Notes: generated by a model not told the origin, from the sequence alone. A stretch of 64,000 nucleotides of DNA from Myxococcales bacterium (GCA_037442205.1 JBBIQS010000039.1:6102-70101); one strand, 5' to 3'. Counted from the first letter of the stretch, positions 12,000 through 59,749 are shown. Numbers and translations: made by a program.

Positions 12000-12265
12000 A
12001 GCGCACGCCGCTCGCGGGCCCTCGGGACGGTCGGTCCTCCACCCCAGCGCTTCCCAGCGCCAATCCAACTCGCTCCCGGCTCGCCTGCGCTCGGGATGGC
12101 GCGCCTCGCATCTCCGGGACCGGGCAGGCGGTGGCCGCGACCTGAACGAAAGGACCGGCAAATAGATTGGCAGTTCCGGGGACCGGCACCTCCTGCTACG
12201 CGGTATTGCGCTGGGCGGGAGCCGCACCTGAGCGGAGCCACGCCTCCAGCCCCGGGGGTGCGCCC

Positions 12266-42012: not shown

Positions 42013-42741
42013 CTACTCCTTCGGCCGGCTGGCGCCCTCGATCCTCGCCAGCTCGAGCGGATGCTCGTGTTCCATGCGCTCCCGGCTGATCTTGCCGGTG
42101 AAGATCGCCGTATCGAAGGGGAACACGTCGGGGTTGAGGTGGGCGTTGTAGATGTGCCAGACGATGACCACCAGGAAGGCCATCAGGCCCTCGTTGCTGT
42201 GGGCCATCTTGGCGGCGGGAATCACCTCGCCGGGCAGCAGCCTTGCGACGGCGATCGGGAAGAACAGGATCAGCCCGGTGACCGCCATGATCAGCGCCCC
42301 GAACACCAGCCCCCAGTACTCGAACTTCTGCCGGTAGTCGAAGCGGTCGTACCTGGGCGGCGACTCGCGGAAGCCCAGGTAGTACTTCAAGGTGTCGATG
42401 GCGTCGCGGAAGTCCTGGCGCTTGGGGACGATGGCGAAGCTGGCCCGCCGCTGCGCCAGCTGCCAGATGTTGAGCGCGAAGTGGAACACCACCAGCGCCA
42501 CCATGAAGAAGCCACAGGCCCGGTGGACCTGGCGGGCGAAGGTCACCCCGCCCAGCGAGGCCATCAGCGCCTTGGCCCAGCCGCTGTCGTAGAACTTCTG
42601 CGGGAAGCCGGTCAGGCTCAACAGAGTGAAGCTGGTGAGCATGGCCACGTGCTCCAGCCGCTGGCGCAGCGAGAAGCGCGTCAGGAAGGGCTCGGTGCTC
42701 GGGCGGGCCATCGCGACGGCCTGATCAGAGGGCGTGCTCAT
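42013..42741 (-). CDS. Dihaem b-type cytochrome (FdnI/HydC-like membrane subunit)
   Basis: I trimmed the start to ATG 42741, which overlaps the upstream stop as ATGA. The protein has 4-5 TM helices with conserved His residues ([28 protein letters not shown]...WHIYNAH). Confidence 0.85.
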
Positions 42742-43832
42742 CGGTTCACCACCACTCGCCACAGGTGCAGCAGGATCTGCAGCACCAGCCCGCCGATCAT
42801 GAAGGGGATGACCAGCGAGTAGAAGACCTTCACCCCGTACACCAGCGGCGCCTTGGTGAGGCTGGGCTCGTAGTGGCTCATCCAGGCGGCGGGGAAGCTG
42901 GCCCCGGAGTCGGGGTGGCACCTCTGGCAAGTCTTGACCAGGTTGGCGGCCATCACCCGCGAGTCCGGCGAGCGGACCTTGGCGATGTCGTGGACCCCGT
43001 GGCAGTCGGTGCACAGCGCCACCACCGGGTTGACCCCGCCCCTCTGCGCCGACTGCAGCGAGGCGGTCATCCCGTGGAAGTCGGAGAGGTAGGTCTGCAG
43101 CACCTTGGTCGACAGGCCGTACCTCTTCATCATCGGCTCGTTGGTGTGGCAACTGCCGCACATCTCCGGGGTCTTGAGCCGCCAGGCGCCGGCCTTGGGG
43201 TTGGCGATGTCGTGCGAGCGGTGGCAGTCGGTGCAGGTGGGCACGTCGGCGCTCTCGCCGCTGAGCAGCGCCTGGCCGTGCACCGACTTCACGTAAGAGG
43301 CGTTCACCGCCTCGTGGCACTTGGAGCAGGAGCGGCTGATGCGGGCCCGCGGCTCGGCGGCGCGGCCGACGTCGTGGGCCCCGTGGCAGTCGGCGCACAC
43401 CGCCGCCCCGAGGTTGCCGTTGTCGCGGGCGGCGTTGTGGACGCTGTCCAGGGTGCGCTGGTAGTTGGCGAAGTGGCACTGCTTGCACTGCTCGGAATAG
43501 TTGATGGTCAGCTCGCGGCGGGTCTTGAAGGCCTTGGGGTCGTGGCCGCCGGAGCTGCCCTTCAGATCGGCGTGGCAGTCGGTGCAGCTCAGGTTCTCGC
43601 CGTGTATCGAGCGGGCGAAGAGCTGGGCGTCGACGAACAGGCTCTGGGGCTCACCCCCTTCGAGCGCGACCTCCAGCCCCTGATCGCCGTGGCACTCCAG
43701 GCAGTCCTCGGCCGCCGCCGGCTTGCCGGCCGCCGGAGGGTCGGCGGGCCGCGCGCCCGCGTCGGGGGCCTGGGCGCGCGCCGAAGCGGCCGCCAGAGTC
43801 GCGACGAGCAGGCCCAGCAGACTCAGCCTCAT
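42738..43832 (-). CDS. Nine-haem c-type cytochrome with a C-terminal membrane anchor
   Basis: I trimmed the start to ATG 43832, with GAGGAGAGGAG upstream. It has a signal peptide ([20 protein letters not shown]). The 9 CxxCH motifs are CLECH, CTDCH, CKQCH, CADCH, CSKCH, CTDCH, CGSCH, CTDCH and CQRCH. A C-terminal TM helix follows. Confidence 0.9.
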
Positions 43833-43966
43833 GGACTGCTCCTCTCCTCGAAGTCGCCCTCCGGTCCGCGGCGCAGTCGCTTCGCCCCAGGCCCGGTCGC
43901 TGCCTCGACCTCGGAACGGGGGCGCGTCGCGATAAGCGTCGGCGGCGCCCGAGGCCTCCCTGGAGT

Positions 43967-43985
43967 AGCAAATCGGCGATTTGCT
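43967..43985. promoter_or_regulatory. Perfect 8-3-8 palindrome (candidate operator) in the divergent cytochrome-operon/uspA intergenic region
   Basis: AGCAAATC-GGC-GATTTGCT, read directly. It lies about 135 nt upstream of the cytochrome operon ATG. Confidence 0.35.
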
Positions 43986-44168
43986 GTCACCCCAACCACA
44001 CGGCAAAAGCCATGCTTCTACGGCACGTTAGGAAGCCTACGGCGAGCTTGGCCTGTCGCCCTGCGGCCTGCCGGCGCACTTCGGTGGCGCCGCCGGTCGG
44101 GATAGCGAATCGATCGCTCGGCGCGGCCGTCGGCCGGCGCCTAGCGTTGAGGAGGGACGGAGGCGGTC

Positions 44169-44594
44169 ATGGGCTTCGAGCGGATCCTGGTGGGCGTCGA
44201 CGGCTCCGAGGCCTCGCTGCGGGCGCTGCGGTTGGGCGTCGAGATCGCCGCCAGGTTCGGGGCGAAGGTGACGCTGGTGACCGTCATCCCGCCGCTGCTG
44301 CTGCCCAACGACGCCTACGCGCCCGGGGTCGGGGCGATCGAGCAGGAGCACCGCCGGCATGCCGAGCAGGTGCTGGCTGAAGCGAGCGAGCTGCTGGAAC
44401 CGAAGGTTGAGGTCGACAAGGTCCAGCTCTTCGGCGCCCCGGCCGAGTCGCTGGCTCAGCTCGCCCAGTCTGACGAGGTGGGGATGGTGGTGGTCGGCAG
44501 CCGCGGGCGCAACGCGGTGATGCGGGTGCTGGTGGGCAGCGTCTCCGACCGGCTGGTCCACATCAGCCCCAAGCCGGTGCTGATCGTCCATTGA
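44169..44594 (+). CDS. Universal stress protein (UspA family)
   Basis: The protein reads MGFERILVGVDGSEAS...VVGSRGRNAVMRVLVGSVSDRLVHISPKPVLIV. Confidence 0.9.
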   Translation: MGFERILVGVDGSEASLRALRLGVEIAARFGAKVTLVTVIPPLLLPNDAYAPGVGAIEQEHRRHAEQVLAEASELLEPKVEVDKVQLFGAPAESLAQLAQSDEVGMVVVGSRGRNAVMRVLVGSVSDRLVHISPKPVLIVH

Positions 44595-44832: not shown

Positions 44833-45210
44833 ATGCGCCAGCCAGCCCACATGCCGACCGAGGTGCCTGAGGTCGATATCGCGTTCTCGGGATATCCGCC
44901 GGAAGCGGGTCCGGCGGTCGAGCGGCAGGCCCAGCTGCTGCGGGCGCTGGGCCATCCGGTGCGGCTGCAGTTGGTGCGGGCCCTGGCCGAAGCCCCGCTC
45001 TCGGTGAGCGCGCTCTCGCAGCGGCTCGACCTGCCCCAGAGCCGGGTCTCGCAGCAGCTGTCCCTGCTGCGCCACCAGAACCTGGTCTCGGCCATCCGCC
45101 GCCAGGGATTCGCCATCTACCACCTGGCCGAGCCGCACCTGCGCGCGCTGGTGGCCTGTCTCGACGAATGCTGCCCGCCCACGGCGACGGCAGCGGGGAG
45201 TGCCCGATGA
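44833..45210 (+). CDS. ArsR/SmtB-family transcriptional regulator
   Basis: The winged HTH reads LLRALGHPVRLQLVRALAEAPLSVSALSQRLDLPQSRVSQQLSLLRHQNLV. Its stop overlaps the next start as ATGA. Confidence 0.85.
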   Translation: MRQPAHMPTEVPEVDIAFSGYPPEAGPAVERQAQLLRALGHPVRLQLVRALAEAPLSVSALSQRLDLPQSRVSQQLSLLRHQNLVSAIRRQGFAIYHLAEPHLRALVACLDECCPPTATAAGSAR

Positions 45211-47396
45211 GCACGATGAGCCGCAGGACCTTCCTCAAGGTCGCCGGAGGGTCGGTGCTGGGCGGCCTGGCGGCGAGCGCCGGCCTGTTCGGCCGCGCGG
45301 TGAGCGCCCAGGAGCTGAGCGGGATCGTCCCCGACCGCGTGGTCCCCAGCTTCTGCGAGCTGTGCTTCTGGAAGTGCGGGGTGCTGGCCTACGTCAAGGA
45401 CGAGAAGGTCTACAAGATCGAGGGCAACCCCAAGCACCCGCTCTCCAACGGCATGCTCTGCCCGCGCGGCGCGGCGGCAGTGGGCGCGCTCTACGACCCC
45501 GACCGGCTGCGCCAGCCGCTGCTCAGGGTCGAGGAGAAGGGCGCCCAGAAGTGGAAGCCGGTCAGCTGGGAGGAGGCCCTCGACTTCACCGCCAGGCGGC
45601 TGACGGGGATCAAGGCCAAGTACGGCGCGGGCGCGATCGCCGTCTTCTCCCACGGCCACGGCGGCGGCTTCTTCAAGACGCTGCTCAAGGGCATGGGCTC
45701 GGGCAACGTGGTCGCCCCCAGCTACGACCAGTGCCGCGGCCCGCGCATGACCGGGTTCAACCTCACCTTCGGCCTCGACCCCAATTCGATCGAGACCATC
45801 GACATGGCTCACTCCAGGTGCATCGCCTTCCTCGGCACGCACCTGGGCGAGAACATGCACAACACCGCGGTCCAGGACGTCTCCGCCGCCAACGCCAACG
45901 GCGCGGTGTTCATCACCGTCGACCCGCGCTTCTCGATCATCGCCAGCAAGTCCAAGTACTGGCTGCCGATCAAGCCCGGCACCGACACCGCGCTGCTGCT
46001 GGCCTGGGCCCACGTGCTGATCAACGAGGGGCTGTACCAGAAGGAGTTCATCGAGAAGAACGCCATCGGCTTCGACCAGCTCAAGGAGCACCTGCAGGAT
46101 AAGACCCCGGAGTGGGCCTGGCTGCAGACCGGCATCGAGCCCTCGCTGATCCGCGAGACCGCGCGCGAGCTGGCCCGGGCCGCCCCAGCCTCGATGGTCA
46201 ACCCCGGCCGCCACGTGGTCTGGTACGGCAACGACGCGCAGCGCTCGCGGGCGGTGGCCATCGTCAACGCGCTGCTCGGCAACTGGGGCAAGAAGGGCGG
46301 CTTCTACCTGCCCGAGACCTACCCGGTCCCCGAGCTCAAGGGGCCCAAGCCGCCGCCGAGTGAGCACTTCCACCCGCGCCAGAAGTTCCCGTTCGCCGGC
46401 GCCGACTGCGCCTACGACGTCTGCGACGCCTCGCTCTCCAAGCCCAACGACCCGGCCAACGTGAAGGCCTGGCTGGTCTATGGCTGCAACGTGCCGCTGA
46501 CCCTGCCCAACACGGAGCAGACCATCGCCGCGATGAAGGAGCTGGAGCTGGTGGTGGCCATCGACACCATGCCCGCCGAGGTCACCGGCTGGGCGGACGT
46601 GATCCTGCCCGAGAACACCTACCTCGAGCGCTTCGACGAGCTGCATAACCCGCCCTTCCGCGTCCCCTACGTAGCGGTGCGCCAGCCGGCGGTGGCCTCG
46701 CTCTACGACACCAAGCCCGGCTGGTGGATCGCCAAGGGCCTGGCGGAGCGGATGGGTCTGGCCGAGTACTTCCCGTGGAAGGACATCGAGGAGTACCTCG
46801 ACAAGCGCTGCCAGGCGGTGGGCATCGACTTGGCCACTCTGAAGAAGGAAGGCGTGATCGCCCGCGAGCCCAAGGGCATCTACGACGACTCGCCGGAGAT
46901 GACCTTCGCCACCCCGAGCAAGAAGATCGAGCTCTACAGCCAGCAACTGGCCGACGCCGGGCTGGACCCGATCCCGCGCTACGAGCCGCCGGAGGAGCCG
47001 CCTGCAGGCTACTTCCGGCTGCTCTTCGGCCGGGCCCCGGTCCACACCTTCACCCGCACCACCAACAATCCCCAGCTCAACGAGATCTTCCCCGAGAACG
47101 AGCTCTGGATGAACGGCTCGATGGCGCGCTCGCTGGGCCTCAAGAACGGCGACCGGGTGATGCTGGAGAACCAGGACCGGGTGAAGGTCGGGCCGATCAA
47201 GCTCAAGGTCACCGAGCGCATCCGCCAGGACTGCGTCTACATGGTCCACGGCTTCGGGCGCGAGGACGCGCGGCTGCGCAAGAGCTACCGGCGCGGGGCC
47301 GCCGACTCGCGGCTGATCACCCGCATCAAGCGGGACCCGCTGATGGGCGGCACCGGGATGAACGTCAACTTCGTCTCCGTCTTCAAGGAGGGCTGA
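45207..47396 (+). CDS. Tat-exported molybdopterin oxidoreductase catalytic subunit (PsrA/PhsA/TtrA-like)
   Basis: The twin-arginine signal is MSTMSRRTFLKVAGG. The N-terminal 4Fe-4S motif is CELCFWKC...CPRG. The protein has the length and collinearity of the DMSO-reductase superfamily. The substrate cannot be assigned from sequence alone. Confidence 0.9.
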   Translation: MSTMSRRTFLKVAGGSVLGGLAASAGLFGRAVSAQELSGIVPDRVVPSFCELCFWKCGVLAYVKDEKVYKIEGNPKHPLSNGMLCPRGAAAVGALYDPDRLRQPLLRVEEKGAQKWKPVSWEEALDFTARRLTGIKAKYGAGAIAVFSHGHGGGFFKTLLKGMGSGNVVAPSYDQCRGPRMTGFNLTFGLDPNSIETIDMAHSRCIAFLGTHLGENMHNTAVQDVSAANANGAVFITVDPRFSIIASKSKYWLPIKPGTDTALLLAWAHVLINEGLYQKEFIEKNAIGFDQLKEHLQDKTPEWAWLQTGIEPSLIRETARELARAAPASMVNPGRHVVWYGNDAQRSRAVAIVNALLGNWGKKGGFYLPETYPVPELKGPKPPPSEHFHPRQKFPFAGADCAYDVCDASLSKPNDPANVKAWLVYGCNVPLTLPNTEQTIAAMKELELVVAIDTMPAEVTGWADVILPENTYLERFDELHNPPFRVPYVAVRQPAVASLYDTKPGWWIAKGLAERMGLAEYFPWKDIEEYLDKRCQAVGIDLATLKKEGVIAREPKGIYDDSPEMTFATPSKKIELYSQQLADAGLDPIPRYEPPEEPPAGYFRLLFGRAPVHTFTRTTNNPQLNEIFPENELWMNGSMARSLGLKNGDRVMLENQDRVKVGPIKLKVTERIRQDCVYMVHGFGREDARLRKSYRRGAADSRLITRIKRDPLMGGTGMNVNFVSVFKEG

Positions 47397-47400
47397 GCCG

Positions 47401-47937
47401 ATGGCCCGCTACGGCATGACGGTCGATCAGCGGCTGTGCGTCACCTGCAACGCCTGCGTGATCGCCTGCAAGAACGAGAACAAGGTCCCGGAGGGCGCCG
47501 CCCGCTGCTGGACGGCGCAGATCGAGCGCGGGAGCTTCCCCACCGTCTCGCTGGAAACGCGCTCCGAGCGCTGCAACCACTGCGAGAACGCCCCCTGCGT
47601 CTCGGCCTGCCCCACCCGCGCCAGCCACTACCTGGCCGGCGGGCTGGTGGCGGTGGACAAGGACAAGTGCGTCGGCTGCAAGGCCTGCGTCACGGCCTGT
47701 CCCTACGAGGCCCGCTACATCCATCCCGCAGGCTACGTGGACAAATGCTCCTTCTGCCCGCACCGGGTGCAGAAGGGCCAGGAGCCGGCCTGCGTGGCGG
47801 TCTGCCCCACCGACGCCCTGACCTTCGGCGATCTCGACGACCCGCACTCCAAGGTCCACCGCCAGCTGCAGACCCGGACCTTCAAGGTCCTCAAGGAAGA
47901 AGAGGACACCCGCCCCAAGGTCTTCTTCCTCACCTGA
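47401..47937 (+). CDS. 4Fe-4S ferredoxin electron-transfer subunit (PsrB/NrfC-like)
   Basis: It has four Cys clusters (CVTCNACVIAC, CNHCENAPC..C, CVGCKACVTAC, CSFCPHR...C). Confidence 0.9.
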   Translation: MARYGMTVDQRLCVTCNACVIACKNENKVPEGAARCWTAQIERGSFPTVSLETRSERCNHCENAPCVSACPTRASHYLAGGLVAVDKDKCVGCKACVTACPYEARYIHPAGYVDKCSFCPHRVQKGQEPACVAVCPTDALTFGDLDDPHSKVHRQLQTRTFKVLKEEEDTRPKVFFLT

Positions 47938-47949
47938 CCGGACGACGCC

Positions 47950-49203
47950 ATGAGCTCACAAACTCTCGACTTGCGCGCTGCGCTCTCCCAGGTGCCCAAA
48001 CTATTCCTGGTGACCGACGGCGATCCCAAGCACACCGCCCGCGGCAAGCTGCTGCTGCGGGGCCTGCTGGCCGTCGCTCTGGCCGGCCTGGTCTCGGGGA
48101 TCATCGCCTTCCTCTACGGGCACCACGTGATGGGCACCAACTCCGAGATCCCCTGGGGCGTGCTCATCGCCAGCTACACATTCTTCGTGGCCAACACCAG
48201 CGGGCTGTGCCTGGTCGGCTCGCTGGGGCACGTCTTCGGCTACAAGCTCTTCGAGCCGGTGGCCAAGAAGGCGCTCCTGCTGGCGCTGATCAACCTGCTG
48301 TTGGGCTTCGCGGTCATCGGCAGCGAGCTCGAGCGGCCGCTCCTGCTTCTGAAGATGGTTCTGCTCTCCCCCAACCCCACCTCGCCGATCTGGTGGATGG
48401 GCACGCTCTATGGGCTCTACCTCTTCGTCATCCTCTTCGAGCTCTACTTCCTGCTGCGCGAGGATCACCGGCGGGCCAAAGTGGCCGGAATCGTCGGGGT
48501 GATTGCGGCGGTGGCGGCGCACACCAACCTGGGCGCAGTGTTCGGGCTGTCCCACGCGCGCGCATTCTGGGCTGGGCCGTTCTTCCCCATCTTCTTCCTG
48601 GCCTGGGCACTGGCCTGCGGCGCGGCGCTGCTGGCGCTGATGGTCTACTTCCAGGACTACTTCTCCCGCGCCGACAAGCAGGTGCGCGAGGAGCACAAAC
48701 CGCTGCTGGCGGCGCTCGGCCAACTGCTGGCGCTCTTCCTGTCGATCGTGGCGGTGCTGGCGGCCTGGAAGCTCATCTCCGACGTCTACGCCGACCACCG
48801 CGGGCTGGCGGTCATCGGCTGGGCGCGGATGACCGGACCGCTCTTCTTCTCAGTGTGGATCTTCGAGATCTTCCTGGGGCTGGTGATCCCGCTGGCGCTG
48901 CTGTTGGGGCCCAAGCGCAACCAGCCGCGGACCATCGCCATGGCGGCGGCGCTGCCGATGCTGGGCGTCTTCGTGATGCGCTACAACTTCGTCTACGCCG
49001 GCCAGATGCTCTCGCTGAAGCCGATCGTCGGGCACCTGGGCGAGGTCATCACCTACGGCCCGCCGTTCAAAGGCAACCCCGCCGGCTTCCTCTCGTACAC
49101 GCCCTCGATCGTCGAGGCGCTCATCGTCGCCGGCGCCGTGGCCGGCGTGATCCTGCTCTACGTCGCCGGCACCAAGCTGCTCGAGCCGGCCAAGGAGGCC
49201 TGA
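47950..49203 (+). CDS. NrfD/PsrC-family integral-membrane quinol-interacting subunit
   Basis: The 417-aa ORF has about 10 TM helices. Its position after the A and B subunits is the canonical PsrABC order. Confidence 0.85.
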   Translation: MSSQTLDLRAALSQVPKLFLVTDGDPKHTARGKLLLRGLLAVALAGLVSGIIAFLYGHHVMGTNSEIPWGVLIASYTFFVANTSGLCLVGSLGHVFGYKLFEPVAKKALLLALINLLLGFAVIGSELERPLLLLKMVLLSPNPTSPIWWMGTLYGLYLFVILFELYFLLREDHRRAKVAGIVGVIAAVAAHTNLGAVFGLSHARAFWAGPFFPIFFLAWALACGAALLALMVYFQDYFSRADKQVREEHKPLLAALGQLLALFLSIVAVLAAWKLISDVYADHRGLAVIGWARMTGPLFFSVWIFEIFLGLVIPLALLLGPKRNQPRTIAMAAALPMLGVFVMRYNFVYAGQMLSLKPIVGHLGEVITYGPPFKGNPAGFLSYTPSIVEALIVAGAVAGVILLYVAGTKLLEPAKEA

Positions 49204-49204
49204 G

Positions 49205-49786
49205 ATGGCCGAGACCACTCAGCTCGCCGAGTCGCAGCCGAAGCGGCCGGCGCCCTACTGGAACTCCTACGTCGCCGGCTTCGGCCTGGGGCTGGTGCTG
49301 CTGGCCTCCTACGTGCTGGCCGGCCGCGGCCTGGGGGCCTCCGGCGCGGCCACGCGCATCGCCAGCTACGCGGTGCACAAGGTCGACGCCATGGCCCATG
49401 GCGGCACCGAGGCCGAGGGGCACACCGTCGCCCGGGCCAACGCCTACATGGCGCCCTACGTGAAGGGCCCGGCCGATCCCTTCGACGACTTCCTGGTCTA
49501 CCTGATGGTCGGAATACTCTTCGGCGGATTCGCCAGCGGCTGGTCCGCCGGGCGAGTCTCCTTCGAGATCGTCAAAGGCCCGCACGCCACCAACAAGAGG
49601 CGGCTGGCGCTGGCGCTGCTGGGCGGCTTCATCTCCGCCTACGGAGCGCGGCTGGCGCGCGGCTGCACTTCGGGGCAAGCGCTGAGCGGCGGGGCCACGC
49701 TGGCGCTGGGGAGCTGGGCATTCATGCTCGCGGTCTTCGCCGGCGGCTACGCGCTGGCCTACTTCCTCAGGAAGGAGTGGCTCTGA
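49205..49786 (+). CDS. YeeE/YedE-family sulfur-compound transporter, half-size unit 1
   Basis: The hydrophobic 193-aa protein carries the LARGCTSGQALSG motif typical of YeeE/YedE. Confidence 0.85.
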   Translation: MAETTQLAESQPKRPAPYWNSYVAGFGLGLVLLASYVLAGRGLGASGAATRIASYAVHKVDAMAHGGTEAEGHTVARANAYMAPYVKGPADPFDDFLVYLMVGILFGGFASGWSAGRVSFEIVKGPHATNKRRLALALLGGFISAYGARLARGCTSGQALSGGATLALGSWAFMLAVFAGGYALAYFLRKEWL

Positions 49787-50379
49787 TGGAACCGCTCGCT
49801 CCAGTCACCAAGGTCTTCGAGCTGGGCGCCAACGCCGAGGCGGTGCTGGCCATGCTGCTCGGCTTCGGCTTCGGCTTCATGCTCGAGAAGGGCGGCTTCG
49901 GCAGCTCGAAGGTTCTGGCCGGCCAGTGGTACGGCTACAACTTCGCGGTGCTGCGGGTGATGTTCACCGCGATCATCACCAGCATGGTCGGCCTGTTCGG
50001 CCTTCGCTACCTGGGGGTGGTCAACTTCGAGCTGGTCTACGTCAACGAGACCTTCCTCTGGCCGCAGATCGTCGGCGGCTTCATCTTCGGCATCGGCTTC
50101 GTGATCGGGCAGTTTTGCCCTGGGACGGCGCTCGCCGCCTGCGCCACTGGGAAGATCGACGCCATGGTCTTCACCGCCGGCTTCTGGATCGGGATCGTCG
50201 CCTTCTCGTTCAGCTTCCCGCTGTTCTCCAGGTTCTATGACAGCTCGAGCATGGGCCGGATGCTGGTCTCCGACTGGCTGCACCTGCCGGCGGGAGTGGT
50301 GGTCTTCCTGGTAGTGCTGATCGCGCTGGGAGCCTTCGCCCTCACCCATTTCCTCGACAAGAAGCTGGCCAAGAGCTGA
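49786..50379 (+). CDS. YeeE/YedE-family sulfur-compound transporter, half-size unit 2
   Basis: ATG 49786 overlaps the upstream TGA by 1 nt, and AGGAAGGAG lies 9 nt upstream. The motif is GQFCPGTALAACATG. Confidence 0.85.
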   Translation: MEPLAPVTKVFELGANAEAVLAMLLGFGFGFMLEKGGFGSSKVLAGQWYGYNFAVLRVMFTAIITSMVGLFGLRYLGVVNFELVYVNETFLWPQIVGGFIFGIGFVIGQFCPGTALAACATGKIDAMVFTAGFWIGIVAFSFSFPLFSRFYDSSSMGRMLVSDWLHLPAGVVVFLVVLIALGAFALTHFLDKKLAKS

Positions 50380-50391
50380 GTCGGAGGGACC

Positions 50392-51006
50392 ATGTTGACC
50401 CGCAACCGCATCGTCTTCGCCGTGGTCTTCGCGCTGGCTGGCGCTGGCGTGGCCGCGCTGTCCTTCAAGGGCGACCCGCCGCGGGAGCTGAATGCCGCCT
50501 TCCACGCCGACAGCGCCAAGCAGGTGAGTCCCGCCGAGCTGGCCAGCTGGATCATCGAGGGCCGGCGGGACTTCACTGTGGTCGACACCCGGCCGGTGGA
50601 GAACTACCAGGCCAGCCACGTGCGCGACGCGGTCAGCTGCGGTAGCTGCCACCAGTCGAAGCAGCAGGCGCGCGAGTCGGAGACCTTCGTCGATCTCTCG
50701 AAGAAGATCGTGCTCTACGCCCAGTCCGACGCCGACGAGATCGTGCTGCCCAAGATCCTGGTCGAGAACCCGCGGCTGCTGAGGCTGTCGGGAGGCTTTG
50801 AAGGTTGGCAGCAGGAGATCCTGGCGCCGGTGAAGCAGGAGGGCCTGACCAGCGATGAGCAGGTCCTCGACGCACGCCGCCGCGAGGCGCGACGCGCCTT
50901 CTTCTCCGGCGAGACGCCCAGCGCCCCGGCACCGGTGAAAGCGCCCGTCGAGCCGGTTCGCCGCGGCGGTCCCCATAAGGCGGCAGCAGCCGCCGAGGGC
51001 TGCTGA
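50392..51006 (+). CDS. Membrane-anchored rhodanese-homology-domain protein lacking the catalytic Cys but carrying CGSCH
   Basis: It has an N-terminal TM anchor. The rhodanese fold signals are VSPAELASWI...FTVVDTRP...SHVRDAV...IVLYAQSD...LSGGFEGW. The active-site position reads YA rather than YC. Confidence 0.75.
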   Translation: MLTRNRIVFAVVFALAGAGVAALSFKGDPPRELNAAFHADSAKQVSPAELASWIIEGRRDFTVVDTRPVENYQASHVRDAVSCGSCHQSKQQARESETFVDLSKKIVLYAQSDADEIVLPKILVENPRLLRLSGGFEGWQQEILAPVKQEGLTSDEQVLDARRREARRAFFSGETPSAPAPVKAPVEPVRRGGPHKAAAAAEGC

Positions 51007-51007
51007 G

Positions 51008-53722
51008 TCAGCGGCAACTCGCCGGCCGGCGTTCGAGGCTGGCCGGGAAGTCGGAGTAGATCCGGGCGCTGTCCGCCTTGCCCGGATCGTGGCAGCGCAG
51101 GCAGCCTCCAACCCGCAGCGTTCGCTCTCGCGCCGCGCGGTCCAGCGGCGCGAGCTGGGTGCGGGTCGCCTTGGCTGAGCCGCCATTCTCGGCCGCGCCA
51201 ATCCACGCATCGGCTGGCAGCCCGTCGCGAAGCGGCCCGCTCTCCGGCTCAAATCGCGCCACGCCTCCGGTGGACACGACCGTGCCGACGCCCAATCCCG
51301 CCGCCGCGGTCTCGCTATGGCACGAGGCGCAGGACCGGCCTGCGCGCGTCGTGGTGTGCGGCACCGACAGGGCGAACGCGCGCACCATCCTGGTCTTTTC
51401 GGTCATCAGTGCCCCGGCGCGATCGGGCAGCGTTCTCGGAGCCGGGACCTCGGGGCCATTCAGCGTGAGGATCATCCCCGGAGCCACCGGCTCGATTCGC
51501 CCCTCGCCATCTCGCTCGAGCACTCCCAGCGCTGGCGCCACAGCCTTCGGTTCGGCGTCGTATTCGGCGTAGGCCCCTGCCCGCTCCTCCCGCGCCAAGG
51601 CATCGAAGCGCTTGCCGCTCGCATCCCATTGCGTGTGGCAGCTCAGACACTGGGTGGTCCAGCTCGAGTGGCAGGACTGGCAGGAGAGCCGCTCATGCCC
51701 TGCGATCCCCGCGCAGGCGCGCGCCGGCGGCTTGGCGAGATGAACCTTGCCGCTGAGCTTTCCTCTGATCTCGACGTTGCCGTCGGGCAAAGGCCGCGCG
51801 TTGCTCAGCGCCAGCCCACTGCGATCCTCGGCGAGTAACACGCTGCTCTTGTCCAGGCCGCGCAGCCGGGCGACGACGCGCGCATCCTTGTCGGCGTCCT
51901 TCACCAGCACCGACTTGGCCGGCTGCACCCGGTGGCAGGTCTGGCAGCGAATCTTCGTCGCCTGCTCCTCGTGCAGCGGCGCGCTTCCGTCGCCCATCGC
52001 CTCCGCCCCGAGGTGGCAGTCGATGCAGGCCATCCCTAGGGCGTGGTGAACGTCCTCTTGCTCCTTGAGCAGCACCCGGCCGTCCTCGAGCAGCCGCCAG
52101 CTCCCCGGCGGCCGCGACTTCGCCTCCTGCGCGGTCAGCGCCGACTCGCGCCAACCGGCATAGGCCAGCGAGATGCGCCCGGAACGGCTGTGGCAGCCGA
52201 AGCAGCTCTCGTCGCCCACCTGCACGGTCAGCTTGGGATGGGTGAAGCGACGCGCGTTCTCCTTGGAGTAGTCGCGCCCCTCGGGATAGCGCACGTGGCA
52301 CGCCGCGCAGCCGCCTCCGCGCGAGAGCTCGGTCACCGGCCCCGGAGCGTCCTTGAGCTGCCCGAGGTGGCAGTTCACGCACAGCTGACGCAGGTGGCGG
52401 TCGGCCGCCGAATCCCCCAGGTCCTTGGGCGAGTCGCTGCCATCTGGCGCTGGCCGCTCGCCAAAGGCCCAGCGATCCACGGCGATCATCCCGCGCACCG
52501 TTGCCATTGGGGAGCCGGCCACGCGCCCGACGAGGTCGCCATGGCAGCCGGCGCGTCCGCAGCTTCGGGCCGCAGTGTCGAGGTTTCCCGGAACTCGAAC
52601 CAGCCCGGCGTGGGCCGAGGCGGCGTCAGGCGCGTCGGGGTTTCCGAGATGGCAGGAGAAGCACCCCATCGCCTTCGGGTCGTGCGACGACTCGATGCCG
52701 CTAACCTCGCTGTGGCAGCCGACGCAGCCCTCGACCTTGCCGTCGCCGAACTGCACGGCTTGCTCGGGAAGGCTGGTTACCGCCAAACGCCCCACCGCCT
52801 CGCCACTGCGGCTGGCCGGCCCGCCGCGCCCCAGGCCACGCAGCTCCCAGCCCGCCCCGCGAAAGAGCGCCGCGAAAACACCGGTCAGCAGGTAGACAAC
52901 CAGCCCGGCCACCAGAGCGTTCAGCGCCGGGCGCCGCAGACTCTCGAGCTTCGGCAGGGCCACCAGCAGAACCAGCGGAGCCACGAGGACCACCCAGATC
53001 CATCCCGGTTCAGTCAGATGATGCAGCGCCTCCTGCACGGCCAGGGAGTACCAGGGCCCTTTGCGCACCGGATCCACGCCGTCGTGAAGCGCCGGCGGCA
53101 GCACCATCCCGAGCCCGAGCGCGAGCAGCAGCGTCGACAGGGTCGCCGGGGCCGAGGGCCAGATCCTACGTCCGTGCTCGACGGCCACCAGCGCCAGCGC
53201 CACCGTCAGCGTGGCCGCGTGATGGAGGTAGGGAATCTGGAGGTCGGCTCCGGTGCCGAAGAGCGAGGTCGCCGCGGCCTCGCCGAGAAGCGGCAGCTTC
53301 TCCAGCAGGCCGGTAGCGATCTGCCGCGCCAGCTCGGCATCGGCGTCCCCCTTGAGCACGAAGCCGGTGAGCATCGCCCCGAGCAGCAGCGGAATGGCCA
53401 GCACTGCGCGCGCCCACACACCCCAGCGCGGCTTGAGCTCCCCGCGCGCGGCCAAGTGCTCGACCACGTGCATGAGCCCGAGGATCACCAGCAGGTTTCC
53501 CGACCAGGCGTGCAGGGCGCGCAGCAGCCTGCCGGCGCCGCTCGAGAGCTGCAGCAACGACAGCGAGCTCCGCGGCGCGCCCACGTCGTAGCCGACGGCC
53601 AGCACGATTCCCGAAACCGCGACCAGCAGCAGCGCCGCCAGCGCCAGGGTCCCCGCGGTGGCGAAGCGTCGGTTCCAGCGGCCAAACCAGCTCGTCAGCC
53701 GGCTCTGGTCAGCCGAGTTCAA
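51008..53722 (-). CDS. Fusion protein: cytochrome b6/b-like membrane domain plus a multihaem cytochrome c domain of about 600 aa
   Basis: The N-terminus has His-x13-His (LHAWSGNLLVILGLMH) and His-x14-His (HAATLTVALALVAVEH) pairs, plus a PWY segment (KGPWYSLAV). The C-terminal part has 11 CxxCH motifs plus one CGRAGCH (CX4CH). The TTG start at 53722 overlaps the Rieske stop by 14 nt. Confidence 0.85.
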   Translation of the reverse strand: MNSADQSRLTSWFGRWNRRFATAGTLALAALLLVAVSGIVLAVGYDVGAPRSSLSLLQLSSGAGRLLRALHAWSGNLLVILGLMHVVEHLAARGELKPRWGVWARAVLAIPLLLGAMLTGFVLKGDADAELARQIATGLLEKLPLLGEAAATSLFGTGADLQIPYLHHAATLTVALALVAVEHGRRIWPSAPATLSTLLLALGLGMVLPPALHDGVDPVRKGPWYSLAVQEALHHLTEPGWIWVVLVAPLVLLVALPKLESLRRPALNALVAGLVVYLLTGVFAALFRGAGWELRGLGRGGPASRSGEAVGRLAVTSLPEQAVQFGDGKVEGCVGCHSEVSGIESSHDPKAMGCFSCHLGNPDAPDAASAHAGLVRVPGNLDTAARSCGRAGCHGDLVGRVAGSPMATVRGMIAVDRWAFGERPAPDGSDSPKDLGDSAADRHLRQLCVNCHLGQLKDAPGPVTELSRGGGCAACHVRYPEGRDYSKENARRFTHPKLTVQVGDESCFGCHSRSGRISLAYAGWRESALTAQEAKSRPPGSWRLLEDGRVLLKEQEDVHHALGMACIDCHLGAEAMGDGSAPLHEEQATKIRCQTCHRVQPAKSVLVKDADKDARVVARLRGLDKSSVLLAEDRSGLALSNARPLPDGNVEIRGKLSGKVHLAKPPARACAGIAGHERLSCQSCHSSWTTQCLSCHTQWDASGKRFDALAREERAGAYAEYDAEPKAVAPALGVLERDGEGRIEPVAPGMILTLNGPEVPAPRTLPDRAGALMTEKTRMVRAFALSVPHTTTRAGRSCASCHSETAAAGLGVGTVVSTGGVARFEPESGPLRDGLPADAWIGAAENGGSAKATRTQLAPLDRAARERTLRVGGCLRCHDPGKADSARIYSDFPASLERRPASCR

Positions 53723-54091
53723 CGTCCACCGCCGTTCCCGCGTCGTCCGGGGCGAGCCGCAGCAGCCGCAGGTCGGCCCACGCGGGCCCCTCTACCCGCT
53801 TGCCGTCGCGATCGAACTTCGAGCCATGGCAGGGGCAGATCAGCAGCCCGCCCTGCTCGCGGTCGATCCGGCATCCCAGGTGCGCGCAGCGCGAGGAGAA
53901 TGCCCGCACCTCCTCGCCCGCCCGGACGAGAATCACCTCCCCATGGAAGCTGATCCCGTCTGCGGCCGGCTTGGGAATCGTCAGCCGCTTGCTCTCTTCG
54001 CGTCGGCGCCGGGCGGTTCCCAGCAGGCCCGCGGCCCCGGCCAGCAGCGCCGAGAGCCCGGCCATCGCCCCGCGCAAGAGATCCCGACGCG

Positions 54092-54098
<7 letters not shown>
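53709..54098 (-). CDS. Tat-exported Rieske [2Fe-2S] protein
   Basis: The twin-arginine segment is LTRRDLLRG. The Rieske boxes are CAHLGC and CPCHGS. I prefer the GTG at 54098, which has GGGAG 9 nt upstream. The longest ORF begins at GTG 54125. Confidence 0.85.
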
Positions 54099-55888
<1,790 letters not shown>

Positions 55889-56086
55889 GTCCAACTCCTC
55901 GCCTGGAACGATTCGCAACGGTTTGAGACTGTCGTTCTCCAAAGGATTCACCGGGCAGGCTATCCGAAAGCCGCAGTCGTTTCCTGGCCTTGCGCCGCCG
56001 GAGAGCCTCCCGCGGAGCCCGCCGCTTCTCAACAGACGACCGGCCGCCGATCTGGGCGGCCGGAGGCCGAGTACCCGGAGGGCTGT

Positions 56087-58219
56087 CTAGAGGGCGGGCA
56101 CGGCGAGTTGCAGCACCGCGCCCAGCGAGGTCCCCACCAGCAGCTGGCTGCCGTCGGAGGTGAAGGCCAGCGCGGTGGCCCGCTCGGCGTTGGCGGCCAG
56201 GCTGAAGTGGTCAACCTCCCGCTGCCGGTCGAGGCTGAACAGCCGCACCTGGCCGTCGGCGAAGGAGGCGGCCAGCTGCCGGCCGTCGCTGGAGAGCGCG
56301 AAGGCGATGGCCCGCGAGGAGAACTCCCCCAGCGAACCGCTCTGTCTGGCCTCCGGCACGTCCCAGACCTCGAGCACCGAGCCATGCGGCGAGCGCGTGG
56401 CCAGGAAGGCCCGGCTGCCGTCGCCGGTGAGGGCGATGGCGAAGACCTCGCGCCCGTCCCACTTGAAGGTCTGCACGGTCTTGCCGGTGGCCACCTCGCG
56501 GATCACCGGGGCTTCCCCGCCGCCGGCGGTCAGCGCCAGCTTGCCGTCGGTGGTGAAGAGCACCGCCGACACCAGCCGCGAGAACCAGATGCTGCCCAGC
56601 TCCTTGCCGCTCTCCATCTCCCACAGCGCGATGCGCTCGTAGCTTGTGGAGAGCGCCTGCTTGCCGTCGCCGCTGAAGGCCACCCCCGCAAGCCCCCGGT
56701 GCGAGCCGAGCAGCTTCAGCGGCGCCCCGGTGGCCACGTCCCACAGCCGCTGCAGGCCGTTGATGTCCGCGGCCAGCGCCATCTTGCCGTCGGGAGAGAA
56801 GGCCACCGCTCGCACGTCCAGGGCGTACTGGTCGAAGGTGAAGAGCTCCTCGCCCTTGTCGAGCTGCCAGAGCCGGGCGGTGCCGTCGCGGGCGGCGCTC
56901 AGCGCCAGCCGGCCGTCGGGCGAAACCGCCAGGCTCTCCACCGCCCCCGAGTGGCCGCCGCTCTCGCGCAGCAGCTTGCCCTGGGCCAGGTCCCAGATCC
57001 GCAGCGTCCCCGACTCGTCGAAGACCGCGTGGACGCCGTCCGGGCTGAAGGCCGCCGAGCGCGCCCCTTCGTCCGGCTTGCCGGAGGCCACCACCTCGTC
57101 GAGCGAGGCGGCGTCCCACTGGCGGATCCAGATCTCCGCCGCCGGCTTCTCGGAGCGGGCGCTGGCCGAATAGACCGCCGGCCGGTTGGAGCCAGTGGCA
57201 CCGATCCGCCGCCCGTCCGCCGACCAGGAGAGGCTGAGCAGGTGCATCGGCTGCTCGACCAGCGCGGTCGAGGTCGAGGTCCGCAGGTCCCAGCGCGCCA
57301 GCCGCCGCCCCTCTTCGCCTGAGAGCGCGTAGCGGCCGTCGGGGGAGAGCGCCAGCGCCGTCACCTCCGGCCCCCCGGGCATCCCCAGCATCTGCAGCGA
57401 CTTGCCGCGGGTCAGGTCCCAGACACGCAGCGTCCCGTCCTGGCCGCCCGAGGCCACCCGCTTGCCGTCGGCGAAGGCGGCCAGCGCCCGGATCCACCCC
57501 TGGTGTCCGTAGAGGGTGAACAGGGCCCGCCCGCGGGCGATCTCCCACACCCGCACCACTCCGTCCTCGCCGCCGGAGACCAGCAGCTTGCCGTCGACGC
57601 CGAAGGCCACCGCGGTGGCCGCGCCCCGGTGCCGGTGCAGCCGATGCACCAGTCGCCCGGTCTCCGCGTCCCAGACGGCGACCGTGCCGTCGCGCGCTCC
57701 CGCGGCGATCTGGTGGCCATTGCGGGAGAACGCAAGGCAGGTCGCGGCTGCGTCCAGCCCCTCGAGCAGGTGGAGCTGGCGCCCGCTCGGCAGGTCGAAG
57801 AGCCGCAGCGCCTCTCCCGCTCCTCCGGAGAGCAGCCGCTTGCCGTCCGCCGAGACGGCCACCAAAGGGCCGGCGCTGCGCAGCGCATAGCCGCCCCAGA
57901 CGCTCTCCAGGTGGAGATGCTTGAGATGCGCCAGGTGCCTGAGCGGGCCGGGCAGCTCAGCCGCGGCGCCGGCCGGCTCTGCGGGAGCGGGCTTGGAGCT
58001 CGCCGCAGCCTTGGGATCGGCGGGCGGCTCGGAGGGGCGAGGCGGTTCGGGGCTCATGGGCGAGGGCGTATGGGAAACCGCCGCGTCGGCAGCGCCTCGC
58101 CCGGCGTCGGCGGGAGCTCCCGGAGCGGGGGAACTCGGAGACGCAGCGGGCTCGGCCGCGCGCGAAAGAGGAGCGAGCAGGAGAGCGGCGAGCAGTGGGA
58201 GTGGCGCACCGGCGCGCAT
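56087..58219 (-). CDS. Secreted WD40-repeat (double beta-propeller) protein
   Basis: The signal peptide is MRAGAPLPLLAALLLAPLSRAAEP. A Pro/Ala/Ser linker follows, then about 13-14 WD-like blades (...VAFSPDG...D.T.R(L/I/V)W(D/E)...). Confidence 0.85.
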   Translation of the reverse strand: MRAGAPLPLLAALLLAPLSRAAEPAASPSSPAPGAPADAGRGAADAAVSHTPSPMSPEPPRPSEPPADPKAAASSKPAPAEPAGAAAELPGPLRHLAHLKHLHLESVWGGYALRSAGPLVAVSADGKRLLSGGAGEALRLFDLPSGRQLHLLEGLDAAATCLAFSRNGHQIAAGARDGTVAVWDAETGRLVHRLHRHRGAATAVAFGVDGKLLVSGGEDGVVRVWEIARGRALFTLYGHQGWIRALAAFADGKRVASGGQDGTLRVWDLTRGKSLQMLGMPGGPEVTALALSPDGRYALSGEEGRRLARWDLRTSTSTALVEQPMHLLSLSWSADGRRIGATGSNRPAVYSASARSEKPAAEIWIRQWDAASLDEVVASGKPDEGARSAAFSPDGVHAVFDESGTLRIWDLAQGKLLRESGGHSGAVESLAVSPDGRLALSAARDGTARLWQLDKGEELFTFDQYALDVRAVAFSPDGKMALAADINGLQRLWDVATGAPLKLLGSHRGLAGVAFSGDGKQALSTSYERIALWEMESGKELGSIWFSRLVSAVLFTTDGKLALTAGGGEAPVIREVATGKTVQTFKWDGREVFAIALTGDGSRAFLATRSPHGSVLEVWDVPEARQSGSLGEFSSRAIAFALSSDGRQLAASFADGQVRLFSLDRQREVDHFSLAANAERATALAFTSDGSQLLVGTSLGAVLQLAVPAL

Positions 58220-58378
58220 GAGCGCTCTTCTACCGCGCGCCGACGGGCTCGGCCACCGATTGTTCTGCCAGAGCCGCCTGGTCGAAGCCGCGTTTTCCGC
58301 AGCCGCCGAGGGCCCGCCCGCGCTTTACGGCGGCGGCCCTTCGCAGCGATGATGTGCGGCCCTTTCCGGAGGTTCCCC

Positions 58379-59749
<1,371 letters not shown>

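Follow-up and report, generated by a model that had tools for sequence, protein, structure and literature searches.

A Rieske protein and a cytochrome b joined to a multihaem cytochrome c

We analysed a 64,000-nucleotide stretch of DNA from a Myxococcales bacterium (GCA_037442205.1, JBBIQS010000039.1:6102-70101; hereafter the window), a Myxococcota-like contig from a subsurface metagenome with a G+C content of about 70%. Within it, a small gene for a Rieske iron-sulfur protein is followed by a large open reading frame (ORF) in which a cytochrome b is fused to a multihaem cytochrome c. An earlier note on this DNA had described a Rieske protein with a twin-arginine translocation (Tat) signal, whose stop overlaps the start of a 904-residue protein; the latter was said to begin with a cytochrome b core, carrying His-x13-His, His-x14-His and GPWY in place of PEWY, and to run uninterrupted into a c-type domain with 11 CxxCH motifs and one CX4CH. 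ORF calling and motif counts bear out all of this. The two reading frames overlap by 14 nt and are translationally coupled, the Rieske protein has a TRRDLL motif and both cluster boxes, and the 904-residue protein has the pairs His71/His85 (x13) and His168/His183 (x14), GPWY at residues 222-225 and 12 c-type haem sites in total. With 14 haems (two b and 12 c) added to an apoprotein of 95.3 kDa, the holoprotein would have a mass of about 104 kDa. Specifically, CxxCH occurs at residues 333, 354, 448, 472, 507, 566, 593, 681, 692, 798 and 874, and the single Cx4CH (CGRAGCH) at residue 388 (window positions 52541-52561). The Rieske ORF can begin at position 54125, that is, 27 nt upstream of position 54098, which had been given earlier. 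The coordinates of these and other features are collected in Table 1.

Pfam recognized a Rieske domain in the small ORF (E 1.5e-11) and, in the large one, Cytochrome_B over residues 22-157 (E 9e-11) with several multihaem families downstream. In an alignment of 112 full-length fusion homologues, from which all conservation figures for the fusion protein were taken, the four haem-b histidines are kept in at least 111 sequences and, across the 12 haem motifs, every Cys and every His in at least 110; exactly 11 CxxCH motifs are present in 106 of the 112. The extended motif KGPWY is nearly invariant (Gly 111/112, Pro 112/112, Trp 112/112, Tyr or Phe 110/112). The cofactor sites of the Rieske protein, the b core and the haem domain are all under strong purifying conservation.

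The idea that an assembly or sequencing artefact had joined two genes was refuted by the available reads and homologues, and we give it a negligible probability. A 7.9-kb Logan contig at 25x, from the public subsurface-metagenome run holding the stretch, is identical to the window over positions 50800-54300, with 0 differences. Sequence from a second sample of the same study differs from the window across the b/c junction (52562-52954) by substitutions alone, so that the inspection of the junction proposed in the earlier note found no indel in either metagenome sample. In addition, among 170 relatives obtained in a protein search, more than 100 clusters encode full-length proteins of about 900 residues (860-970 residues, query coverage 96-100%, identity 35-60%). 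We fetched 80 loci encoding relatives, 41 of which are well flanked (at least 8 kb on either side); one continuous fusion ORF is present in 78 of the 80.

The N-terminal part of the protein resembles cytochrome b6, the closest solved match to residues 1-320 (E 5e-10 for the single sequence, E 3e-19 for a profile of 22 family sequences). The four proposed haem-b ligands hold up in this alignment: H71/H85 align to b6 H86/H100, and H168/H183 to b6 H187/H202, which are likewise x14 apart. Where b6 has Cys35 (haem ci), the family profile and the window protein have Thr or Ala, and residues 1-300 contain no Cys upstream of helix A; haem ci is therefore not expected. An AlphaFold2 model of the full-length protein, built on 31 homologues, has a mean predicted local distance difference test score (pLDDT) of 82.7, with values of about 90 over residues 10-290 and below 50 at residues 296-307, in the linker. 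It shows seven transmembrane helices (A-G), the surface helices cd1 and cd2, and an ef helix beginning directly after GPWY. Foldseek placed 310-350 columns of the model on full-length cytochrome b of many bc1 complexes (probability 1.0; template-modelling score about 0.55, target-normalised), and the predicted fold of residues 1-300 superposes on the whole of bc1 cytochrome b, in agreement with the earlier assignment of this domain. On the basis of this model, the N-terminal 292 residues would correspond to cytochrome b6 plus subunit IV, i.e., to bc1 helices A-G, with GPWY replacing PEWY. The Qo loop connects helices E and F, as in other cytochromes b of this type, yet the canonical PEWY/PDWY/PVWY is not matched, and the Pro at the second position of the motif makes atypical quinol chemistry a reasonable expectation. 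The seven helices place the C-terminus in the periplasm, so that a cytochrome c domain can follow directly.

The Rieske protein gives its top NCBIfam matches to b6f PetC-type models. All 67 family members that we compared have the boxes CxHxGC and, 11 residues on, CxCHGSx[F/Y]. Their signatures are S-F in 38, the window protein included, and S-Y in 29, with G-F or A-Y in 0/67; both observed signatures have been classed as predicted mid+ to high potential (PMC4122944). For the S-F signature, a potential of roughly +200 mV or above would be expected. The gene adjoins the fusion gene in the same direction in 72 of the 80 loci and in 41/41 well-flanked loci, where tblastn detected it in every case. 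The presence of this partner bears on whether the cytochrome b fold might have been recruited as a non-bifurcating quinol dehydrogenase or transmembrane conduit, working without a Q cycle. Such a role would be in keeping with the missing Qo glutamate of the canonical motif (GPWY) and with the use of the four-helix haem-b module as a reusable electron-transfer unit in other fusions (PMC4122944). We nevertheless consider it very improbable: a Rieske partner with intact cluster ligands is always present, and the ef-loop is retained in full along with the two haem-b His pairs, all of them features expected for bifurcated Qo chemistry.

The remainder of the fusion protein matches the NCBIfam model ExtM ('selenite/tellurite reduction operon c-type cytochrome'), residues 324-882 aligning to positions 13-580 of the 599 in the profile (E 3.8e-66); residues 23-184 match the model of ExtP, that operon's b-type cytochrome (E 4.5e-16). 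Neither score comes near its equivalog cut-off (223.7 bits versus 800 for ExtM, NF040943; 59.3 versus 290 for ExtP, NF040969), so these domains are relatives, not orthologues, of Geobacter ExtM and ExtP. Outside the haem motifs, the family alignment contains seven invariant His (347, 371, 443, 495, 559, 676 and 789) and three invariant Met (406, 576 and 750), and M374 is kept in 86%. This amounts to 10-11 obvious distal ligands for 12 haems, which hints that some haems have His/Met ligation and that one or two sites are open. Three further residues are invariant or nearly so: Lys457 (about 52352-52354), five residues past the fourth haem motif, C670 (about 51713-51715) and the penultimate C903 (about 51014-51016). 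A C670-C903 disulfide could pin the C-terminus. Haem motifs 10 and 11 are separated by a beta-rich region (about residues 690-830).

A haem domain with open sites could itself be a terminal reductase, as are octahaem tetrathionate reductase and the MccA sulfite reductase. The complex would then be a quinol:chalcogen reductase and not an electron relay, receiving a sulfur or selenium species as its substrate through the YeeE-type and rhodanese-like proteins encoded nearby. Besides the shortfall of distal-ligand candidates and the invariant Lys457, C670 and C903, the weak, motif-level matches of the haem-domain profile to NrfA and MccA speak for this, as does the occurrence of rhodanese-like proteins beside both this module and the Geobacter ext cluster, in which extI is linked to selenite and tellurite reduction (PMC5877670). 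However, a sequence search of the PDB with the haem-domain profile gave matches at the motif level only (NrfA 0.004, ACIII ActA 0.013, MccA 0.87), reflecting haem packing across the range E 0.004-0.9, and the active-site signatures CxxCK and Cx15CH are absent from the protein. Ligand counting by alignment is also crude, and a dedicated molybdenum reductase is encoded alongside. We therefore view a catalytic haem domain as quite unlikely. A fold search with the full-length model gave cytochrome b chains only among the 50 matches listed, leaving the haem domain with no structural neighbour there, and when the haem domain was modelled by itself, on 11 aligned sequences, the result was unusable (pLDDT 47.7).

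Table 1. Features of the Rieske/cytochrome b locus and its surroundings, in window coordinates
Feature	Position	Strand	Basis or remark
Fusion ORF, 904 aa	51008-53722	minus	TTG start
Rieske [2Fe-2S] subunit, ExtO-like, 138 aa	53709-54125	minus	ORF call, Pfam Rieske
Tat motif TRRDLL	54075-54092	minus	
Rieske box I, CAHLGC	53871-53888	minus	
Rieske box II, CPCHGSKF	53814-53837	minus	
Cytochrome b6-like four-helix bundle, helices A-D, aa 18-186	53165-53671	minus	Pfam PF00033, b6 alignments
Haem-b ligand H71	53510-53512	minus	
Haem-b ligand H85	53468-53470	minus	
Haem-b ligand H168	53219-53221	minus	
Haem-b ligand H183	53174-53176	minus	
Subunit-IV-like / cytochrome b C-terminal-like helices E-G, aa 187-292	52847-53164	minus	predicted fold
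Qo-site ef-loop motif K-G-P-W-Y	53048-53062	minus	
Linker from helix G to haem domain, aa 293-325	52748-52846	minus	low pLDDT; split point of natural variants
ExtM-like periplasmic 12-haem cytochrome c domain, aa 326-904	51011-52747	minus	NCBIfam ExtM profile, haem motifs
PsrABC-type molybdoenzyme	45168-49203	plus	
PsrABC-type, catalytic subunit	45168-47396	plus	
PsrABC-type, 4Fe-4S subunit	47401-47937	plus	
PsrABC-type, NrfD-type membrane subunit	47950-49203	plus	
Two half-size YeeE/YedE-type (Sulf_transp) membrane proteins	49205-49786, 49777-50379	plus	NCBIfam YedE/FdhT, TsuA partial
Membrane-anchored rhodanese-like protein	50392-51006	plus	Pfam Rhodanese E 1.9e-9; convergent with fusion gene, 1 nt apart
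CGSCH of rhodanese-like protein, aa 83-87	50638-50652		
PAS-domain sigma-54-dependent activator	54092-56032	minus	Pfam Sigma54_activat E 5e-69, PAS, HTH_8
ArsR-family regulator	44833-45210	plus	overlaps psrA start
Universal stress protein	44169-44594	plus	just upstream of ArsR gene
Nine-CxxCH cytochrome	42738-44006	minus	
Large WD40-repeat protein	56087-58219	minus	
Beta-eliminating lyase (tryptophanase / tyrosine phenol-lyase type)	57503-59749	plus	real start probably near 58.4 kb

Fused and separate forms and their gene neighbourhood

Full-length relatives of the fusion protein were found in Myxococcales, Acidobacteriota, Balneolales, Bdellovibrionales, Bacteroidales, Ignavibacteriales and a Rubrivivax metagenome-assembled genome (MAG), and when one genome was scanned for each GTDB species, at least 557 species genomes proved to encode a relative. 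Cultured isolates of Maribellus, Draconibacterium and Melioribacter are among the carriers, as is an Ignavibacterium album MAG. The earlier note had regarded the fusion as unusual, a view that does not stand: it occurs in hundreds of species, its clade and a multihaem fusion have been described (PMC4122944), and a split form is present in Geobacter (PMC2825233, PMC5877670).

Comparison of orthologues, which that note had called for, revealed both fused and split arrangements, the latter at three loci (L003, L081 and L082 in our set). At L003 (Calditrichaceae; 9580-12799), a Rieske gene of 137 codons is accompanied by a b gene of 301 codons that ends exactly after helix G and by a separate gene for a 629-residue protein with its own anchor, which shows the 12-haem motif pattern. 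The anchored cytochrome of L082 has 11 CxxCH and one Cx4CH motifs and is 36.5% identical to residues 331-903 of the window protein; at L081 the contig stops soon after the signal anchor and first CxxCH of the separate cytochrome gene. All three loci combine a Rieske gene with a 7-helix b protein of 291-301 residues, and the break falls in the linker region. Since these close relatives have a separately anchored 12-haem protein, whether the genes are fused or separate appears to be an interchangeable detail and gene fusion a recurrent variation, while the 12-haem cytochrome looks like a constant partner of this cytochrome b clade.

To place the cytochrome b among its relatives, we performed an exhaustive HMMER search with residues 1-300 against 1.84 billion representatives, which identified 839 relatives, 56 of them at E <= 1e-30. 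The best 150 of the 839 include 27 fused proteins (at least 850 residues), 58 unfused 7-helix proteins (270-330 residues) and 18 that are b6-only. Among these same 150, the Qo motif is GPW[YF] in 94, APWY in 3, SPWY in 3, PDWY in 1 and PEWY in 1, with no motif match in 48, many of which do not include the loop, being fragments or b6-only proteins; nearly all of the loop-containing proteins thus have GPW[YF]. By similarity ranking rather than by a tree, the window cytochrome b appears to group with GPWY cytochromes b and not with the PEWY/PDWY clades.

We next describe the genomic context, which was examined by tblastn with the window's neighbour proteins and by clustering all ORFs in the 80 loci, with annotations confirmed by Pfam. 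A recurrent set of genes accompanies the Rieske and fusion genes: a PsrABC-type molybdoenzyme, a pair of half-size YeeE/YedE (Sulf_transp) proteins, a rhodanese-like protein in one or two copies, in many cases MobA, and a variable regulator. Among the 41 well-flanked loci, tblastn detected PsrA within 10 kb in 35, PsrB in 36 and the YeeE pair in 34, and ORF clustering placed a rhodanese-like protein within 10 kb in 36 and MobA in 27. The orientation of the module relative to the Psr side is divergent in Bacteroidales, convergent in the window and co-directional in Ignavibacteria, where the genes form the string mobA-Rieske-fusion-merR-psrABC-yeeE-yeeE-rhodanese. The linkage therefore outlasts rearrangement, a pattern expected of functional association and not of inherited gene order. 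We found no description of this conserved neighbourhood in the literature searched.

The window PsrA matches Thermus PsrA (2vpw) over residues 17-739 with E 1.5e-209 and has a Tat signal (SRRTFLK). Its best NCBIfam model is PhsA, at 467 against an equivalog cut-off of 694; NrfC/TtrB-like and NrfD-like subunits accompany it, and PsrA proteins of other loci are 43-55% identical to it. The YeeE/YedE halves, of 193 and 200 residues, are encoded by overlapping genes, and each corresponds to one half of Pfam Sulf_transp; the split is kept across phyla, with a Sulf_transp Pfam match on orthologues. The rhodanese-like protein has an N-terminal anchor and lacks the catalytic Cys (its loop in the window reads IVLYAQSDADE). 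Its family occurs in 47 of the 80 loci (e.g., L070:2898-3536, minus strand), commonly as tandem pairs, and 66 of 69 members have a C-terminal Cys, mostly as GGC; the window copy ends in EGC. The GGC tail recalls the GGCGG swinging arm of SoxY and the Sud polysulfide carrier. The window copy also contains CGSCH, a CxxCH motif found in 1/69 members, which could be a chance occurrence or a lineage-specific haem or redox site.

In Ignavibacteria, a gene for a MobA-like molybdenum-cofactor guanylyltransferase lies directly upstream of the Rieske gene (L009:8928-9536, plus strand; also L020, L023, L025, L040 and L057), a position that looks like it puts the bc module in one operon with the molybdoenzyme, and a MerR gene whose product has a Cys-rich C-terminus stands between the fusion gene and psrA. 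Regulators vary by lineage, including MerR with a Cys-rich tail, Crp/Fnr, sigma-54 activator and ArsR types. In the window, the ArsR-family regulator has a Cys-rich C-terminus (ACLDECC), and the sigma-54 activator lies directly upstream of the Rieske gene and co-directional with it, overlapping its start by 34 nt. A related sigma-54 regulator is found within 10 kb in 12 of the 80 loci; no sigma-54 promoter of the form TGGCAC-N5-TTGC, with at most one mismatch, was found in the entire window.

Several other genes of the window appear to be local. The nine-CxxCH cytochrome has a signal peptide after an internal Met, a C-terminal hydrophobic helix and a partial match to DmsE-family decahaem proteins; it is near the module in 1/80 loci and is not conserved. 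The beta-eliminating lyase and WD40 genes, just past the activator, are unlinked to the module in other loci.

Proposed role in respiration

The earlier note had envisaged the fusion protein as a wire from quinol to the periplasm or the cell exterior. We rejected an extracellular electron conduit because no conserved porin or outer-membrane cytochrome lies nearby: ORF clustering of the 80 loci, made without a search using Ext sequences, found no conserved porin or extra cytochrome family. The conserved neighbours are instead a periplasmic Psr/Phs-type enzyme, YeeE-like proteins and rhodanese-like proteins.

Related gene clusters have been described before. In Melioribacter roseus, arsenate strongly induces MROS_1774, a Psr/Phs-type gene preceded by one for a MerR regulator (PMC5492636), and in two other Melioribacter isolates (L023 and L040) the Rieske and fusion genes lie directly upstream of the MerR-psr unit. 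For respiratory selenite reductase, the suggested marker is the presence of rhodanese-like neighbours beside a Psr-clade enzyme (Wells 2019, cited in PMC8528874).

Taken together, we consider it reasonably probable, with appreciable doubt, that the module encodes a Rieske/cytochrome b complex of the GPWY clade acting as a menaquinol:multihaem-cytochrome oxidoreductase that serves sulfur, selenium or arsenic respiration. In such a complex, the 12-haem ExtM-like cytochrome c, covalently joined to the membrane subunit, would stand in for cytochrome c1 or f. The Qo site would oxidize menaquinol; the first electron would pass through the [2Fe-2S] cluster and the fused haem chain to a periplasmic partner, and the second would move through bL and bH across the membrane to the Qi site in a Q cycle, conserving energy. 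Synteny suggests that the complex cooperates with PsrABC, the split YeeE/YedE, the Gly-Gly-Cys rhodanese-like carrier and often MobA, and the module may accordingly form one branch of chalcogen or metalloid (sulfur, selenium, arsenic) respiration.

Several observations weigh against this proposal. Residues 187-292 gave no Pfam or NCBIfam match in a scan of residues 185-330 (no subunit IV, Cytochrom_B_C or ExtQ), so that their predicted subunit-IV-like identity rests on the modelled fold. The Psr cluster is missing from 6 of the 41 well-flanked loci, and PsrABC has its own quinol-oxidizing NrfD, with no obvious need of a bc complex; synteny therefore does not define the electron path. No RNA-seq runs containing the locus were found, and the predicted M. 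roseus orthologues, MROS_1771 and MROS_1772, are not listed in proteome supplements that cover aerobic versus fermentative cells only. A predicted mid-to-high-potential Rieske signature would also sit oddly with a Q cycle run forwards from low-potential menaquinol, and the Pro at the second Qo position is common to the APWY clade, which Kao and Hunte link to reverse operation (PMC4122944).

The last two points lead to an alternative in which the same complex runs backwards, electrons from a periplasmic donor passing through the 12-haem chain and a high-potential Rieske centre to the menaquinone pool, uphill and driven by the proton motive force. Candidate donors would be reduced sulfur, arsenite, Fe(II) or a partner cytochrome, and PsrABC could use or supply the quinol. 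One Acidithiobacillus ferrooxidans bc1 complex is known to run uphill, and carriers of the module use menaquinone. All 67 of the 67 Rieske partners fall in the S-F/S-Y classes of the scheme cited in PMC4122944, and the same survey groups GPWY with APWY, for which reverse flow was proposed, while listing the A. ferrooxidans PPWY variant separately. However, the potential classes are predictions from sequence only, the cultured carriers are organotrophs (PMC3362086, PMC3534657), and apart from the Psr-type enzyme, a reductase where characterized, the module has no conserved donor-oxidizing neighbour. We thus judge reverse operation unlikely, though it is the alternative that we take most seriously, and retain forward menaquinol oxidation as the favoured assignment.

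A broader and more tentative proposal is that the Rieske, cytochrome b and 12-haem proteins, the Psr-type molybdoenzyme, the split YeeE/YedE, the 'dead' GGC-rhodanese and MobA constitute one undescribed respiratory system, a gene set that spans Bacteroidota, Ignavibacteriota, Myxococcota, Acidobacteriota and others. Its substrate would be carrier-bound sulfur or selenium, and the bc complex would be a dedicated point of electron entry or exit, possibly reversed or with a catalytic haem. We regard this as possible but doubtful; if true, it would give Rieske/cytochrome b complexes a role with no known precedent among them.

Comparison with known Rieske/cytochrome b systems

The 'GPWY clade' of Kao and Hunte (2014, Genome Biol Evol) is a set of cytochromes b that they grouped with APWY and apart from PEWY/PDWY; they described the Ignavibacterium album cytochrome b as 'fused to a triheme cytochrome c7 domain', and none of the Rieske partners of APWY and GPWY cytochromes b, predicted to be of mid+ to high potential, had been characterized (PMC4122944). 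Full-text searching for 'GPWY' turned up no subsequent study of this clade. The window protein shares its GPWY/GPWF Qo motif, its occurrence in delta-proteobacteria/Myxococcota and Ignavibacteria, its S-F/S-Y Rieske partner and its C-terminal multihaem fusion, and the I. album MAG locus L057 is among its relatives. However, that survey called the fused part a trihaem c7 from a Pfam match, whereas the window family has a domain of roughly 580 residues with 12 invariant haem sites, homologous to ExtM; neither the spread to Bacteroidota nor the Psr/YeeE/rhodanese neighbourhood was mentioned there.

The genome papers of I. album and M. roseus state that a cytochrome b-Rieske or bc1 complex is lacking (PMC3362086, PMC3534657; M. 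roseus multi-omics, PMC5492636). The Rieske and fusion pair is nonetheless present, beside a 'Psr/Phs' operon, in the I. album MAG (L057) and in the two Melioribacter isolates L023 and L040, and for this reason the module was probably overlooked in the I. album and M. roseus type strains. As the papers on two cultured organisms deny such a complex, respiratory models of common sediment and subsurface bacteria would miss a potentially energy-conserving step. The module could also account for the puzzling arsenate-induced 'Psr/Phs' locus of Melioribacter and tie it to the unexplained 'bc complex' of the Geobacter Ext cluster.

In Geobacter sulfurreducens, that cluster comprises ExtM-ExtN-ExtO-ExtP-ExtQ-ExtS (GSU2935-GSU2930; PMC2825233, PMC5877670), with ExtM a 12-haem protein of 68 kDa, ExtO a Rieske protein of 14 kDa, ExtP a cytochrome b of 23 kDa and ExtQ a membrane protein of 17 kDa (PMC5877670, PMC2825233). 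It is conserved across the genus and was put forward by Butler et al. as a candidate 'bc complex' (PMC5877670, PMC2825233), and the porin gene extI of the ext cluster is needed for selenite and tellurite reduction (PMC5877670). The resemblance to the window lies in the Rieske ExtO, the b6-like ExtP, the small membrane protein ExtQ, the 12-haem ExtM and the nearby rhodanese-like ExtH. In contrast, Geobacter has four separate genes in another order, together with ExtN (10 haems), ExtS and the ExtHIJKL porin/selenocysteine-cytochrome set, whereas the window joins the b, subunit-IV-like and 12-haem parts in one polypeptide whose partners are PsrABC, YeeE and a GGC-rhodanese. Sequence comparison thus suggests that the window protein is a fused counterpart of ExtP, (ExtQ) and ExtM.

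Cytochrome b6f and the Firmicute and heliobacterial b6c complexes resemble the window protein in the haem-b bundle, the x14 His spacing of helix D and seven helices with no eighth. The window protein differs from them in that it has no haem-ci Cys, b6 and subunit IV are fused, the Qo motif is GPWY and not PEWY/PDWY, and there are 12 haems as opposed to one or two. Bacillus QcrC is itself a subunit IV fused to a cytochrome c. The anammox Rieske/cytochrome b complexes (Kuenenia kustd1480-85 and kuste4569-74; PMC12954380) share a b6-like b with a subunit-IV-like part and a multihaem c replacing cytochrome f, but their hexa- and octahaem proteins are separate, and they have haem cN, an NAD(P) oxidoreductase and HAO-like subunits, none of which occurs in the window module.

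The GPWY clade, the multihaem fusion and the ExtMOPQ split form were therefore already known, and the locus described here is another member of a known, biochemically uncharacterized kind: the GPWY branch has no characterized member, yet at least 557 species genomes, those of culturable Bacteroidota and Ignavibacteria among them, encode a relative of the fusion protein. The linkage to a polysulfide/thiosulfate/selenite-reductase-type enzyme and to sulfur and selenium handling supplies a concrete, testable context, and the natural fused and split versions are comparators and material for the structure of a Rieske centre feeding a long haem chain. To the known systems, this analysis adds that the fused part is a homologue of ExtM with 12 haems, that fused and split forms interchange, that the family is broadly distributed and that its gene neighbourhood is conserved.

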